This document shows, one piece after another, positions 2,317 through 54,625 of a stretch of DNA of 64,000 nt; position 1 is the first letter of the stretch; every line of letters starts with the position of its first letter. A program made the position numbers and the translations under genes. Source of the stretch: Thermoanaerobaculia bacterium (GTDB lineage Bacteria; Acidobacteriota; Thermoanaerobaculia; UBA5066); assembly GCA_963719225.1 (NCBI GenBank), contig CAVRAY010000001.1, forward strand, positions 64,001 through 128,000, in the 5' to 3' direction. The notes beneath the pieces were generated by a model that searched no databases, was not told the DNA's origin, and saw only the letters and a list, made by a program, of their open reading frames with translations.

Positions 2317-4212
2317 TCAGTTCACCCGGGCGCGCGCGGAACCCACGGGGCGCGCGGCGAGAGCCGCGAGGAGCTCGGGTGTCCCTCCCCGGCTCTTGGC
2401 GACCCAGTACTCCGCGAGGCGCGCCGCGAGAGGCGCGGCGGCCGACGCTCCGTGCTCGCCGTGCTCCACGAAGACGACGACGACGATCTTCGGGTCGTCC
2501 TTCGGGGCGAAGCTCGCGAACCAGCCGTGATCGCGCAGCTCCTCCGGCAGGAGATGGCCTTTCTTCGCTTCCTTCTGTCCGACCACCTGCACGGATCCGG
2601 TCTTGCCGCACAGGTCGAGGCCCGGGACGCGCGAGGCGTACGCCGTTCCGCCGGGCATGTTCACGACGCGCCAGAGGCCTTCGACGATCGTCTCGTGAGC
2701 GCCGGGCGGATAGGGGATGGATTCCTTGGACTCGGGGCGGTAGACGAAGCGCTCGCCGGAGTGCACGTTCTCGCCGATGTGGAAGAGATGCGGAGTCGGG
2801 AGAGCGCCGTCCGCATTCGCGATACCGGACATGGCGCGCGCGATCTGCATCGCCGTCACGAGGACGGGCCCCTGGCCGATCGCCACGGAGATCGTCTCGC
2901 CGAGATACCAGGGGTGCTTGCGCGCCGCGAGGCTCCAGGCCGGCGATGGAACGATGCCGCTCTTCTCGTTGGAGAGATCGATGCCGGTCGGCCGCCCGAA
3001 CCCGAAGCGCCCCGCCGACTCGGCGATCGCGTCGATCCCGAGCCGCTTGCCCATCGTGTAGAAGTACGTATCGCACGAGACCTGGAGGGCCGTCGTGAGG
3101 TCCACGGACCCGTGACGGCCGTGACACCGGAAGAAGCGCCCGTAGAACGTGGCGCCGCCCGGGCAGAAGACCCTTTCGTGGGGATCGATGCCGTGCGTGA
3201 GGATCGCGTAGGCCATGTAGGGCTTCCAGATGGACCCCGGCGAGTACACGTTCTGGAGCGGGCGGTTGTTGAGCGGGTGGTCCGGGTCCGCCACGATGTC
3301 TTCCCACTCCGGGCGGCTCACGCGCTTCGTGAAGAAGTTCGGGTCGTACGCAGGAGCGGACAACAGCGCGAGGATCTCGCCCGTCTTCGGGTCGAGCGCC
3401 ACGGCCGAGCCGACCCTGTCGGCGAAATAGTCCTCGGCGATCTTCTGGAGCGAGAGGTCGATCGTCAGGTGCAGCGTGTTTCCGGGCGACGGCGACTCTT
3501 CTCCGATTTTTCCGACTTCGCGGCCGAACGAATCGATGACGTAGCTGCGCCAGCCCGAGAGACCGGAGAGAAGGTCCTGGTACGTCGCCTCGACGCCCTG
3601 CTGGCCGATGGCCTCGCCGGGACGAGGAGGGTTCGTGTCGAGAGGCCGCGCCTTCGCCCGCGCGAGCACCTGCTCCGCCGTGGCTTCGCCGAGATGGCCC
3701 AGGAGATGAGCCGCGGCCGTGCCCTGCGTGTAAACACGGCGCTCCGTCTTCTGGACGACGAGCTCCGGATGCTCGAGCGACCGCGCCTGCACGGCTCCCA
3801 CCTCGGAGATCGTGAGGTTTTCCTGGAGCACGACGGGCACGAAGTCGTAGTACGAGCGGTCGCGCTCGACCCGCCGCTTCAGGTCGTCGAACGGCCGGTT
3901 GAAGAGCTCGGCCACGAAGCGAAGGGAGGCGTCGAGATCCTTCGTCTCGCGGCGGTAGAGCAGGAGCGTGAAAGACGGCTCGTTCTCGGCGAGAACGGTG
4001 CCGTTGCGGTCGAGGATGAAGCCCCGGGGCGCCGTGACGGGCACGCGGCGCAGGCGGTTGTTCTCGGCCTGGCGCTCGTAGGCCTCGCCCCGGAGGATCT
4101 GGTGGACCCAGTACACCCCCGCCAGGAGGCCGATGAGGATCCACGTCCCGCGTGCGACGAGGTCGATGCGCGAAAGCACGGGGCGGCGGTCTTCGCGGGC
4201 GCTGGCAGGCAT
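2317..4212 (-). CDS. mrdA: Penicillin-binding protein 2
   Basis: APRGFILDRNG, SxxK (GSIWK), SCD, KTG motifs; ATG at 4212 overlaps mreD stop. Confidence 0.93.
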   Translation of the reverse strand: MPASAREDRRPVLSRIDLVARGTWILIGLLAGVYWVHQILRGEAYERQAENNRLRRVPVTAPRGFILDRNGTVLAENEPSFTLLLYRRETKDLDASLRFVAELFNRPFDDLKRRVERDRSYYDFVPVVLQENLTISEVGAVQARSLEHPELVVQKTERRVYTQGTAAAHLLGHLGEATAEQVLARAKARPLDTNPPRPGEAIGQQGVEATYQDLLSGLSGWRSYVIDSFGREVGKIGEESPSPGNTLHLTIDLSLQKIAEDYFADRVGSAVALDPKTGEILALLSAPAYDPNFFTKRVSRPEWEDIVADPDHPLNNRPLQNVYSPGSIWKPYMAYAILTHGIDPHERVFCPGGATFYGRFFRCHGRHGSVDLTTALQVSCDTYFYTMGKRLGIDAIAESAGRFGFGRPTGIDLSNEKSGIVPSPAWSLAARKHPWYLGETISVAIGQGPVLVTAMQIARAMSGIANADGALPTPHLFHIGENVHSGERFVYRPESKESIPYPPGAHETIVEGLWRVVNMPGGTAYASRVPGLDLCGKTGSVQVVGQKEAKKGHLLPEELRDHGWFASFAPKDDPKIVVVVFVEHGEHGASAAAPLAARLAEYWVAKSRGGTPELLAALAARPVGSARARVN

Positions 4213-34695: not shown

Positions 34696-36354
34696 ATGGC
34701 CAAGCCGGTGATCCTGACCGTCGATGACGATCCCGAGGTGCTTCGCGCGATCGAGCGCGACCTTCGCGGCCACTACCGGAGCGACTACCGCATCCTCAAG
34801 GCCGTCTCGGGCCGCGAGGCGCTCGAGGCCGCCCGGCAGCTCAAGGAGCGAGGAACGCCGGTCGCCCTCTTCCTCGTGGACCAGCGGATGCCCGAGATGA
34901 CCGGCACGGAGCTGCTGCGCGAAGTGCTGAAGCTCTACCCGGACTCGCGCAGGGTCCTGCTCACCGCCTATGCCGACACTCAGGCCGCGATCACGGGAAT
35001 CAACGACGTCGGGCTGGACCACTACCTGCTGAAGCCCTGGGATCCCCCGGATCAGCGCCTCTACCCGGTTCTCGACGACCTGTTGTCCGACTGGACGGCG
35101 CACGTGCGCCTCCCGTACGACGGGATCCGGATCGCGGGCGCCCAGTCGTCGCCGCGCAGCTACGCGGTGAAGGAATTCCTGTCCAGCAATCAGGTTCCCT
35201 ATCAGTGGATCGACGTCGACGAGGATCCGCCGACGCGGCAGCTGATCCGTTCTGTCGGCGACCCGACGAAGCTGCCGGTCGTTTTCTTCCCGGACGGCAG
35301 CCATCTCGTCGCCCCGACGAACCGCGCCCTGGCCGAGAAGATCGGCATGCAGACGCGGGCAAGCCTGCCCTTCTACGACCTCGTGATCGTCGGCGGCGGT
35401 CCGGCAGGGCTGGCCGCCGCGGTCTACGGCGCCTCGGAGGGACTGCGCACTCTGCTCGTCGAGCACAACGCGCCCGGCGGCCAGGCCGGCACCAGCTCGC
35501 AGATCGAGAACTACCTCGGGTTCCCGTCCGGCGTCAGCGGAGCCGACCTCGCGCGCCGCGCCCTCACGCAGGCGCGCCGCTTCGGCACCGAGGTGCTCGT
35601 TGAGGAGGTCGTGGCTCTGCGCCGCGAGGATCCCTATCGCATCATTCGGCTCGCGGACGGCACGGACGTCTCGTGCTACGCGGTCGTCCTCGCCACGGGA
35701 GTCTCCGTCCGGACTCTCGAGGTTCCCGGGATCGAGCCTCTCCTCGGCATCGGCGTCTACTACGGCGCCGCGATGACCGAGGCCGCGACCTACCGCGACA
35801 AGGACGTTTGCGTCCTCGGGGCCGGGAACTCGGCGGCGCAGGGCGCTCTCTTTTTCTCTCGCTACGCGCGTCACGTCACCCTGCTCGTCCGCGGAAAATC
35901 CCTCGGCCAGTCGATGTCGCAATACCTGGTCGACCGGATCGGGGCGGCTCAGAACATCGAGGTCCTGACGAGGGTCGAGGTCGCCTCGGTCTGCGGCACG
36001 GGCCGGCTCGAGAAGGTGTTCCTCCGCGGCGTAGACGACGCGATGGAGCGGGAGCTTGCCGCTTCCGCGATGTTCATCTTCATCGGCGCGAAGCCCCGGA
36101 CCGAAATGGTCTCCGGCCTCCTCGAGCTCGACGAGAAGGGTTTCGTCCTCACGGGCCCGGATCTGCCCCGCACGGAAGGCCGGGTTCCCCGCGGCTGGAC
36201 GCTCGAGCGAGACCCGTATCTCTTCGAGACGAGCGTCCCCGGCATCTTCGCGGCCGGCGACGTGCGAGCGAGCTCGGGCAAGCGCGTCGCGGCGGCCGTC
36301 GGCGAGGGTTCCGGCACGGTCAGCATAGTCCACCGCTACCTCGAGACCGTTTGA
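34696..36354 (+). CDS. Response regulator receiver fused to thioredoxin-reductase-like flavoprotein
   Basis: VDDD, LVDQRMP, KPW; GGGPAG, IENYLGFP, GAGNSA, FAAGDVR. Confidence 0.9.
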   Translation: MAKPVILTVDDDPEVLRAIERDLRGHYRSDYRILKAVSGREALEAARQLKERGTPVALFLVDQRMPEMTGTELLREVLKLYPDSRRVLLTAYADTQAAITGINDVGLDHYLLKPWDPPDQRLYPVLDDLLSDWTAHVRLPYDGIRIAGAQSSPRSYAVKEFLSSNQVPYQWIDVDEDPPTRQLIRSVGDPTKLPVVFFPDGSHLVAPTNRALAEKIGMQTRASLPFYDLVIVGGGPAGLAAAVYGASEGLRTLLVEHNAPGGQAGTSSQIENYLGFPSGVSGADLARRALTQARRFGTEVLVEEVVALRREDPYRIIRLADGTDVSCYAVVLATGVSVRTLEVPGIEPLLGIGVYYGAAMTEAATYRDKDVCVLGAGNSAAQGALFFSRYARHVTLLVRGKSLGQSMSQYLVDRIGAAQNIEVLTRVEVASVCGTGRLEKVFLRGVDDAMERELAASAMFIFIGAKPRTEMVSGLLELDEKGFVLTGPDLPRTEGRVPRGWTLERDPYLFETSVPGIFAAGDVRASSGKRVAAAVGEGSGTVSIVHRYLETV

Positions 36355-43776: not shown

Positions 43777-43785
43777 CGATTCTTA

Positions 43786-43831
43786 TGGTTGCGGGGGGTG
43801 GATTTGAACCACCGACCTTTGGGTTATGAGC
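43786..43831 (-). repeat. Displaced 3' half of tRNA-fMet (att site)
   Basis: 46 nt matching tRNA positions 52165-52210 except 6 compensatory T-stem changes; ends in CCA. Confidence 0.9.
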
Positions 43832-52164: not shown

Positions 52165-52241
<77 letters not shown>

Positions 52242-52321
52242 ACAGGAAGGGGGACCATAGCGGGACGGTCCCCTCGAGTCAAGCCGGCACGCTCGCTGTA
52301 ACCTCCGGCGGCGGAGGCACC

Positions 52322-52783
52322 ATGGCTCTCTTCTCGTCCACGTCCCTGACGCCCGGCATGGCCGCGCCCGATTTCACACTCCCCGACCAGCACGGAAAGG
52401 AGGTGTGCCTCGCGGACTTTCGCGGGAAACGCGTCGTCCTCTACTTCTTTCCGAAGGCCGACACCACGGGTTGAACGATCGAGGCGAAGGCCTTCCGGGA
52501 CGAAGGCCCGAAGTTCCCGAAGGACGTGGCGGTCGTGGGCGTGTCGAAGGATTCCGTCGAGGCGCAGGAGAGCTTCGCGAAGAAGAACGCGCTGAAGTTC
52601 CCGCTTCTCGCGGATTCCAAGGGTGAGGTGATCCGCCGCTACGGCGTGGACCTCGCCTTCGGCATCGCGAAGAGGAAGACGTTCCTCATCGACTCGAAAG
52701 GAAAGATCGCGAAGATCTACGAATCGGTCTCGCCGAAGACTCACGCGGCCGAGGTGGCCGAGGCGCTGAAGGACGTCGGCTGA
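52322..52783 (+). CDS. bcp: BCP/PrxQ peroxiredoxin, probable selenoprotein (in-frame UGA 52472-52474)
   Basis: APDFTLPDQ..VVLYFFPKADTTG-UGA-TIEA..VVGVSKD..FPLLAD..RKTFLID continuous in one frame. Confidence 0.85.
52489..52508 (+). promoter_or_regulatory. Putative bacterial SECIS element
   Basis: GGCCTTC-CGGGAC-GAAGGCC hairpin; loop begins 21 nt after UGA with G at loop position 2. Confidence 0.65.
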
Positions 52784-52812
52784 AGGGGCGCCTTCCCCCG
52801 GTTGAGCGTTTC

Positions 52813-52828
52813 TGGCACGTCCCATGCT
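52813..52828 (+). promoter_or_regulatory. sigma54 promoter
   Basis: TGGCACGTCCCATGCT (GG-N10-GC) upstream of BON gene. Confidence 0.65.
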
Positions 52829-52886
52829 CCTTCGTTCGACGGGTCGGCAGGCCGAGGGCCTGCAAGTGATCTCGAGGAGGAAAAGC

Positions 52887-53456
52887 ATGAAATACGTTCT
52901 GAGGTGTGTACGATTTGCGGTTCTGGCGGCCGTCGTGACCGCGCTTCCGGCTTTCGTGGCGCTGGGCGACGAGACGAGCTCCGACGGTGCGCTGAAGCAC
53001 GCGTTGACGCACGTGAAAATCCGCGCCGCTCTGGTCGAGAAGCTGGGTGGCGACGGCCTTCACATCGACATCGACCTCGCCGGGAGCAAGGCGACTCTTC
53101 GCGGCGAAGTGGAGAAGAAATCGAGTCGGGATCTCGCGAAGGAAGTCGCTCTGTCGGTTTCGGGCGTCACGGAAGTCGATAGCCAGCTCCGGGTGAACCC
53201 GGGGCACCGGAGGAGCACTGGCAAGGCCGTCGAGGCAGATATCAAGGACACGGCGCTGGAGATCAAGGTGAAGCACGAGCTCCTCACCGAGATCGGCAAG
53301 AACGCGCTGAAAATCGAGGTGGAGGCGAGCGATGGCGTCGTGAGCCTTCGGGGGACCGTGCCGAGCTCCGAGGTCGAGAAGCTCGCGGTGCAGAAGGCCG
53401 AGCATGCGGGCGGCGTGAAGAAGGTCATCAACCTACTCAAGAAGAGTTCGGGATAG
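52887..53456 (+). CDS. Dual BON domain (OsmY-like) periplasmic protein
   Basis: Signal peptide; ATLRGEV..VSGVTEVDSQL; GVVSLRGTV..GVKKVINLL. Confidence 0.88.
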   Translation: MKYVLRCVRFAVLAAVVTALPAFVALGDETSSDGALKHALTHVKIRAALVEKLGGDGLHIDIDLAGSKATLRGEVEKKSSRDLAKEVALSVSGVTEVDSQLRVNPGHRRSTGKAVEADIKDTALEIKVKHELLTEIGKNALKIEVEASDGVVSLRGTVPSSEVEKLAVQKAEHAGGVKKVINLLKKSSG

Positions 53457-53478
53457 AGAAAGTCCTTCGCCAGAGAGC

Positions 53479-53895
53479 TCAGCCCACGATACGGAAGCCC
53501 GCTGCGGCGAAGTGAGAATCAAACGTGAAGGCGACGCGGATTCGCGCCTTCGACATGAGCACGAAACTCGTCGCGTCCACGGCCGATAACTTGTGAAGAT
53601 CTCGTCTCTGGAAATAGCGGAAGGCTCTCGTTAGGTCTTCTTCTAAGCACTCGAGAACTCTGAGACGTGGCATCTCGCCCACCGCGTCCTTCCAGGCGAG
53701 CGCAACGTCCCGGGTGGCGTTGCGGTCGAGGAAGGTGAAAGTCTCGAGAACGACGGGTACCGACGTGTGGAGACGGGCGCCGGAGCCCTGGATCTCCTCC
53801 CACGCCTCGACGGCACGGTCGTGAAGCGGATCTCGCGAGAGCGCCAGAGCGATCCAGGCACCGGTGTCGACGAAGACGCCTTCGCCGGACCGCAT
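53479..53895 (-). CDS. vapC: VapC-type PIN domain toxin
   Basis: VFVDTGAWIAL, VVLET, LSAVDATSF, FTFDSHF. Confidence 0.88.
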   Translation of the reverse strand: MRSGEGVFVDTGAWIALALSRDPLHDRAVEAWEEIQGSGARLHTSVPVVLETFTFLDRNATRDVALAWKDAVGEMPRLRVLECLEEDLTRAFRYFQRRDLHKLSAVDATSFVLMSKARIRVAFTFDSHFAAAGFRIVG

Positions 53896-54104
53896 CAGGA
53901 CTCGTCGTAGATGGAATCGTGCTCGGTCGAGGTGCGTCGCGGAACCCCGTTCCAGATGGAGACGGGGCCGCGGGGCGCGGGACGAAGCCATGTCTGGCGG
54001 ACGGCTTCGCGAACGAGATGCGCGACGCTCTTCCGCGACCTCTTCGCGGCCCGATGCAGGGCCGAGAGCTCTTCTTTGCGAAGGTAGACCTGCGTCTTCA
54101 CCAT
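53895..54104 (-). CDS. CopG/RHH family antitoxin
   Basis: KTQVYL..SVAHLVREAV..STEHDSIY; overlaps toxin start. Confidence 0.82.
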   Translation of the reverse strand: MVKTQVYLRKEELSALHRAAKRSRKSVAHLVREAVRQTWLRPAPRGPVSIWNGVPRRTSTEHDSIYDES

Positions 54105-54108
54105 GGAG

Positions 54109-54135
54109 GTGTCATTATTCAGTAGAGAGTGACAC
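54109..54135. promoter_or_regulatory. Putative RHH antitoxin operator
   Basis: IR GTGTCA-N15-TGACAC immediately upstream of antitoxin ATG. Confidence 0.5.
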
Positions 54136-54229
54136 ATATCAAGCGAGCCGCCCGAAGTTCGGTGGGGCAGGCTGCTCCGACGTTCGTCCGAAATCTTCGC
54201 GATTTCCGATCGTCAAGGAAGAGACGAAC

Positions 54230-54430
54230 GACTCGAGCGGAGGTTGCTTCCGCTCGCTGCATCGGGGCAACGTGGTCGGGGAGACGACCGCGGGCTCGAC
54301 CGGCCAGCCGCTTCTCGTGCCGCTTCCAGGCGGAGGCTCGGTGAGAATCTGCTCCGAGCGGGACACTCTTGGTGACGGAACGGAATGGGTCGGGAAAGGT
54401 CTCGTTCCCGACGTCGAGGTCCATCCGCTG
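54230..54430 (+). pseudogene. S41 peptidase C-terminal remnant
   Basis: VVGETTAGSTGQP..LPGGG..GKGLVPDVEV without the N-terminal part. Confidence 0.65.
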
Positions 54431-54492
54431 GCCGAGACGTGCGCACGTCGCGCGACCGGGTCCTCGAGAGGGTGCGCGAGGTCCTCACATCC

Positions 54493-54536
54493 CGACAATA
54501 ATGTTTCCTCCATCTCAAAAGTCTACCTTTTTGTAG
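54493..54536. promoter_or_regulatory. Paired ACA-N4-TGT sites (putative enhancer) upstream of amtB
   Basis: CGACAATAATGTTT and CTACCTTTTTGTAG, 30 bp apart. Confidence 0.55.
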
Positions 54537-54625
54537 CTCAGGAGACCGGCCATGCTGCTCGGTCGGCGAACGTCTAGCCCCGCGCCTGGAACCACTTCCG
54601 CTCCTGCCGGGGGAAAAGCACGCGG

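Follow-up and report, generated by a model that had tools for sequence, protein, structure and literature searches.

The peroxiredoxins (Prx) of COG1225 (Bcp) and PF00578 that carry the motif TxxU are listed among the prokaryotic selenoprotein families in the available portions of two reports (PMC9312934; PMC13188914). An earlier survey counts, in the text accessible, 12 selenocysteine-containing (Sec) Prx members and five Cys-to-Sec events (PMC1794560). The Sec-Prx of this type (TxxU, COG1225) are an already known and experimentally anchored selenoprotein family. Bacteria insert Sec by a pathway that acts through SelB and a SECIS element, as outlined in excerpts of PMC9312934 and PMC1794560. 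The model of the bacterial SECIS, as far as the available text gives it, has a loop of 3–9 nt, a stem of 4–16 bp, a G in the first two loop positions, a distance of 16–37 nt from the UGA and an MFE of at most -7.5 kcal/mol (PMC13188914). Among the PrxQ peroxiredoxins, about a third of the members are described as lacking a resolving Cys, in which case an external thiol performs the resolution (PMC4749874, accessible part).

The gene considered here lies in a window of 64,000 nucleotides, the whole stretch of DNA analysed, from a genome of the Thermoanaerobaculia. It is best explained as an intact BCP/PrxQ-type gene in which the catalytic UGA is very likely decoded as Sec by means of a hairpin 21 nt downstream. 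From the sequence, its product is predicted to be a one-selenol peroxidase without a resolving Cys. That the gene is a real selenoprotein gene is held with high confidence. No paper on the gene or its lineage was found in titles and abstract openings, among which few subscription journals were covered.

The predicted read-through gene and its relatives

Translation of a single frame gives 153 residues with only one internal stop, a TGA in the context FFPKADTTG*TIEA, and a terminal TGA at 52781–83 (Table 1). The initial annotation had described a complete 153-aa BCP in which TGA falls exactly at the peroxidatic Cys (PKADTTG-[TGA]-T) and had stated that the gene was split by the ORF caller. The translation bears out the former, and the latter agrees with the mechanical ORF list, which yields two pieces (52205–52474 and 52526–52783). 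A GGAGG-type motif is also found 5' of the equivalent ATG in the full-length orthologs of the genus for which upstream sequence was shown. In an alignment of 71 sequences, the internal TGA coincides with the invariant peroxidatic Cys of the homologs; T48, position 51 and Arg118 are invariant, and P44 is kept in at least 90%. The position of Arg118 is that of the conserved catalytic arginine of peroxiredoxins.

The read-through protein reaches 130.7 bits against Pfam AhpC-TSA (PF00578; cut-off 26), and its closest solved relatives by sequence are BCP/PrxQ proteins (3drn, E 4.6e-23). A structure model computed with Cys substituted for Sec (pLDDT 91.8) gives TM values of 0.83–0.89 to BCP/PrxQ and AhpE structures in the top ten, the AhpE structures being nearly as good by fold. 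The protein stays under every NCBIfam cut-off, the best profile being PRK09437 (bcp equivalog; 114.8 vs 140), and it is therefore filed under the BCP/PrxQ subfamily and not as the bcp equivalog. The nearest named records derive from Thermoanaerobaculia or Acidobacteria/Acidobacteriota MAGs, with 76–94% identity over the C-terminal part. The databases store the gene mostly as inactive C-terminal fragments (85–101 aa; 32 of the 120 best matches), an annotation that the read-through frame corrects.

Table 1. Positions of the features discussed, in window coordinates unless a genome contig is named.
Feature	Position	Strand	Basis
BCP/PrxQ peroxiredoxin CDS, 153 aa via one UGA	52322..52783	+	translation; Pfam AhpC-TSA
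Shine-Dalgarno-like GGAGG, 6 nt 5' of ATG	52311..52315	+	sequence
Cys29, private to window copy (1/21 genus copies)	52406..52408	+	alignment
Active-site motif P44-x3-T48-x2-U51	52451..52474	+	71-sequence alignment
In-frame TGA at peroxidatic Cys position, predicted Sec51	52472..52474	+	conserved codon in relatives
Codon 56 (Lys), alpha-2 resolving Cys position in Cys orthologs	52487..52489	+	ortholog alignment
SECIS-type hairpin, 7-bp stem, 6-nt loop (52496–52501)	52489..52508	+	folding, comparison
Arg118, conserved catalytic arginine position of peroxiredoxins	52673..52675	+	invariant in 71-sequence alignment
Divergent tRNA-Met gene, marks locus	52165..52241	-	found at Sec and Cys ortholog loci
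Six likely selenoprotein genes (L139–L143, L145)	G000 C1:251373, C1:208487, C2:437698, C1:446129, C1:2923112, C1:2228558	+, -, -, -, -, +	in-frame TGA at Cys-type site

The family was searched in 63 genomes with a threshold of E<=1e-40, and 35 genomes matched at 36 places: 29 with one TGA, six with a Cys form, and one (G012) with a deletion spanning the region around the UGA. The TGA places belong to 21 genomes of the window's genus g1 (one with two copies) and to seven of the eight genomes of the sister genus g11. The six stop-free places, from five other genera, show TGC or TGT and a second Cys five residues downstream. These genomes are kin, and the copy counts overstate independence. Seven of 28 congeners gave no match at this threshold, and two of them (G009 and G015) hold partial or broken pieces, the copy of G009 having a frameshift and a TAA. 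The copy of G007 has a 5' frameshift, in an assembly that is 53% complete and whose selA is also broken; this copy and the deleted one of G012 were excluded from the codon and tree analyses. Codon 51 is TGA in all 28 copies of g1 and g11, as well as in G007, so that the conservation of the UGA in relatives, on which the initial annotation had made its claim depend, is confirmed. The Cys/UGA homolog pairs that it had proposed to look for exist too: the six orthologs from other genera, at 64–70% identity within the same family, all have TGC or TGT at this codon. The TGA-form copies (28 genomes, two genera) share 67–90% protein identity with frames intact on both sides, and the 18 full-length genus copies all measure 462 nt and keep the frame either side of the TGA.

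Active site and predicted resolution of the selenenic acid

The resolving Cys of helix alpha-2/alpha-3, typical of the atypical 2-Cys PrxQ proteins, is absent from the window protein, which has Lys56 and no conserved Cys anywhere. Position 56 is Cys in 6/6 Cys orthologs, Cys (4/7) or Arg (3/7) in the Sec copies of g11, and Lys (6) or Gln (15) in the 21 copies of g1, 20 of which are devoid of any cysteine. Of the 37 full-length proteins that match best in the database, 35 have the CxxxxC arrangement, the exceptions being P0003 and P0007. The statement in the initial annotation that there is no obvious resolving Cys left Cys29 unmentioned. It still holds, since this residue is private to the window copy; the contigs of relatives, among the matches listed, read C at 52406, which gives an Arg codon. 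In the predicted model Cys29 is placed on beta strand E27–29, separate from the active-site motif; it is not a plausible resolving residue. A second Sec-BCP clade was noticed in the sister families f2 and f3 (L057, L160, L169–L181), with the motif U-T-x-E-G-C/R and a different hairpin. Cys56 is kept there in 10 of 12 copies, which speaks against Sec and the loss of the resolving Cys being generally connected.

With the motif PxxxTxxU and the Arg intact, Prx chemistry suggests that the Sec51 selenolate, held by Pro44, Thr48 and Arg118, would attack ROOH and be converted to a selenenic acid. Lacking Cys56, the protein would have this acid resolved by an external thiol. The weakest step is the nature of the reductant. 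The best guess, with roughly even chances, would be either bacillithiol or a protein of the thioredoxin fold that TrxR keeps reduced. This guess is based on the presence in the genome of a bshC-like gene (243.9, under the cut-off of 265.8) and of trxB, located beside an AhpC-type gene, together with the lack of a gshB match for glutathione synthetase in the genome. A PrxQ of C. glutamicum that lacks the resolving Cys is reported, in the part of the paper available, not to be recycled by thioredoxin (PMC5811025), which slightly favours a small thiol such as bacillithiol and speaks against thioredoxin as the direct reductant. One Grx-like match is found inside a response-regulator/TrxR-like ORF. 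At about 34700–36354 (+) of the window, an ORF combines response-regulator-like and thioredoxin-reductase-like domains, the receiver domain having been recognized by reading.

A selenoprotein at this locus could also serve mainly for something other than peroxide scavenging, either as a redox sensor or relay, or as an enzyme that resolves via Cys29. The missing resolving Cys would suit a sensor or relay, as would the three Cys peroxiredoxins with second cysteines that the genome keeps. Also in favour of this explanation, an adjacent conserved partner gene was not found when two neighbours from the window were followed over 33 loci (the BON-domain gene at 1/33 and the dynamin-like gene at 2/33, the window's included). 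Against this explanation, the catalytic residues are intact, the proportion of PrxQ members without a resolving Cys cited above (PMC4749874) makes such a lack unexceptional, and Cys29 is missing from 20 of the 21 genus copies. A main role other than peroxide reduction is thus considered unlikely.

Decoding of the UGA codon

The initial annotation had named selA, selB, selC and selD as the genes to be looked for, and the genome turned out to contain all four: selA (E 1e-108), the tRNA-Sec gene selC (59.9 bits, Rfam cut-off 47, UCA anticodon), selB (295.9 bits, cut-off 242) and selD (335 bits). The selD gene itself carries an in-frame TGA, and one in-frame TGA is also found in fdhA (formate dehydrogenase alpha subunit). 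Among the congeners, selA was found in 23/24; in G022 (96% complete, about 480 contigs) neither selA nor the ortholog was found. No Cys form linked to a selA-less genome was found, and G123 carries both the Cys form and selA. By the established bacterial pathway, SelD would make selenophosphate, SelA would convert Ser-tRNA(Sec), and SelB would bind the hairpin loop and bring Sec-tRNA to the UGA. If selenium were lacking, the ribosome would be expected to stop and release a 50-aa fragment.

Reading of the UGA as Cys or Trp, through an alternative code or through a UCA-anticodon tRNA other than tRNA-Sec, is very improbable. Unusual UGA-reading tRNAs do exist in the literature, judging from the accessible part of PMC5389517, and among the database proteins P0007 has Trp at this position while P0003 has Cys followed by Sec-type downstream sequence. 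However, UGA terminates 1015 of the 1501 long coding-like ORFs of the genome and is therefore its main stop codon, which speaks against a general reassignment. The sole UCA-anticodon tRNA found is the tRNA-Sec, above the Rfam cut-off, and SelA, SelB and SelD are all present. The Trp of P0007 would be most simply explained as a code-4 gene call. P0003, a Gln56-type protein, has Cys at position 51, lacks a resolving Cys and closely resembles the deleted copy of G012; it is possibly a Sec-to-Cys revertant, or an error.

Decoding as Sec is also suggested for other genes of this genome. Genes resembling Thioredoxin_7 (UxxC), a Trx-like protein without family match (UxxC), PrdB/GrdB, a rhodanese (near NF041203), a Prx-like protein (UxxC) and OsmC are likely unannotated selenoprotein genes. 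Together with selD, fdhA and the BCP gene, they bring the selenoprotein candidates of the genome to at least nine. Two of the eight candidates considered, L144 and L146, were rejected, as Pfam and NCBIfam gave no read-through support for them. The hairpins of the other likely selenoprotein genes are comparable: the loop starts with CG in the genes for the OsmC-like and Trx-like proteins, and selD, fdhA and the PrdB-like gene have GUC triloops. Gene calls appear to understate the selenoproteome of this lineage of Acidobacteriota, as in this genome at least eight UGA genes besides the BCP gene look like selenoproteins. Two tmRNA genes are also present in the genome (C2:222382–222743 and C2:609793–610153). 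Their tag peptides differ slightly, and a tRNA-Pro(TGG) copy follows or lies near each; the pair may have arisen by duplication or stem from the 6% contamination.

The hairpin downstream of the UGA has a perfect stem (GGCCUUC/GAAGGCC) and the loop CGGGAC, which starts after 21 nt and has G at position 2, the perfect 7-bp stem, the distance and the G being as the initial annotation had described them. That annotation had also ascribed bacterial SECIS geometry to it, and the published constraints available (PMC13188914) accommodate the loop of 6 nt, the stem of 7 bp, the G at position 2, the distance of 21 nt and the folding energy of -12.1 kcal/mol. It is important to note that the hairpin alone is weak evidence, since similar structures follow about 4% of random TGA triplets. 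A simple scan of the six frames of the genome found a consensus-type hairpin of at most -10 kcal/mol at 3912 of 92133 TGA triplets (the window hairpin scoring -11.1 in it), and 131 of these 92133 triplets matched a stricter loop pattern. Fold z-scores against shuffled sequences (0.27, 0.39, 0.11 and -0.77) did not single out the hairpin region, and in three of 19 genus copies the first 60 nt have another structure than the hairpin as their fold of lowest energy.

The significance of the hairpin derives from its conservation. The seven pairs are kept in 21/21 genus copies and the six core pairs in 7/7 copies of g11, while the hairpin is absent from 6/6 Cys orthologs. Five of the seven hairpin codons use a single codon in the 18 full-length genus copies, compared with 12 of 66 other invariant residues, and Glu61 is GAA in 18/18 copies, compared with 16 of 120 other Glu codons. 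Arg59 is CGT or CGG, so that variation within the hairpin is confined in these 18 copies to the third loop base, G or U, in agreement with the consensus G[G|U] given for the SECIS loop in the text available (PMC13188914). No compensatory changes were found in the 28 copies, because the six core stem pairs never vary. Selection of the Cys56 loss for the seventh stem pair was considered and rejected: the Arg forms of g11 keep a pyrimidine there and still have six core pairs. The Gly codon before the UGA (52469–52471) is GGT in 18/18 genus copies, GGC dominating elsewhere; GGG is found in two g11 copies and GGT in two Cys orthologs.

In contigs of relatives from four public soil-metagenome runs, no alternative letter is seen at the UGA; five of the contigs bridge the codon. 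The TGC or TGT that the initial annotation had thought reads might reveal was not encountered in this material, which consists of contigs of close relatives, not raw reads of the source organism. A dead gene, or an assembly error, in which a Cys codon was mutated or misread to TGA would take a single base change from TGC or TGT, three congeners (G012, G009 and G007) do carry broken copies, and other Prx genes of the genome could cover the function, but this extremely improbable explanation is already largely refuted by the occurrence of this TGA, between intact frames and at the identities given above, in 28 genomes from two genera, by the five bridging contigs and by the retention of the hairpin only in TGA forms.

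History of the locus and comparison with known systems

The tRNA-Met gene is found at 24 of the 33 ortholog loci examined, including 4/4 Cys-form loci, and this shared locus makes the Cys and Sec forms positional orthologs. In the unconstrained tree, all 28 Sec copies group in a single clade (support 0.963) that is nested among the Cys orthologs. However, the likelihood is higher when the 17 Cys orthologs are constrained to be monophyletic (-9656.6 vs -9665.7 unconstrained), and the AU test does not reject a tree in which the Sec copies join the second Sec-BCP clade (p-AU 0.245 with 2000 replicates and 0.12 with 10000). These constrained trees prove neither the nesting nor an independent origin. 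A change from Cys to Sec is the simpler reading, although the gene tree does not prove this direction; it would agree with the Cys found in most outgroups and with the five such Prx events counted in the accessible part of PMC1794560.

A graded series is seen at the tRNA-Met-linked locus: CxxxxC, UxxxxC, and U without a second Cys. Between g70, a Cys form, and g11, the main differences in the hairpin lie in codon 57 (Ser/Ala) and codon 61 (Arg/Glu). A tentative scenario, possible yet doubtful, is the stepwise birth of a selenoprotein at one locus. A CxxxxC PrxQ would have gained the UGA, built a SECIS within its coding sequence through S57A and R61E, and then repeatedly lost the resolving Cys (to Lys, Gln or Arg), which Sec would make dispensable, the outcome being a cysteine-free one-selenol peroxiredoxin. 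If this were true, the natural series would make the question of what Sec buys an enzyme directly testable. In any case, the natural Cys, Sec plus resolving-Cys and Sec-only variants, at 64–90% identity, offer a handy panel for the effects of Sec on the peroxiredoxin cycle.

The surroundings of the gene show some further features. A 52-bp copy of the 3' part of the tRNA-Met gene (86.5% identical) lies at window positions 43780–43831, about 8.3 kb from the tRNA gene, and suggests that an element integrated at the tRNA gene. The ORFs of this putative element resemble, from reading of their translations, an ArsR regulator, a permease, redox proteins, an enolase and a dynamin-like protein, the last of which is 99% identical in G007. 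On the other side, positions 52786–54624 contain a double-BON-domain gene and a small pair whose translations resemble a PIN-type toxin-antitoxin module. No match to this segment was found at the same place in the close relative G007, and it may be a recent insertion.

Several known systems resemble the read-through protein. The Sec-associated peroxiredoxin models PrxU (NF040737) and Prx-SUH (NF045827) describe the same fold with Sec, but the NCBIfam scores of the window protein (54.2 vs a cut-off of 270 and 26.8 vs 298, respectively) are so far under the cut-offs that it is a member of neither. The Prx-like thiol:disulfide oxidoreductase selenoproteins (UxxC/UxxU), one of which is encoded by the genome itself at C1:2923112 (UxxC), share PF00578 and the UGA with it; their Sec is in UxxC, whereas here it is in TxxU. 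The BCP/PrxQ proteins (Bcp1, PDB 3drn; 5enu; BcpB, 5epf; and the PrxQ of Xanthomonas) are alike in sequence and fold, with about 150 aa and no C-terminal extension, while the window protein has Sec in place of the peroxidatic Cys and Lys in place of the usual alpha-2 resolving Cys of CxxxxC. The Sec-Prx of the TxxU type share the domain and the PxxxTxxU motif with it, and in them too the UGA occupies the peroxidatic position and a standard SECIS lies downstream. All of the defining features of this family that were examined are present in the window gene; the window copy differs from them by its lineage, the Thermoanaerobaculia, and by having no conserved second cysteine.
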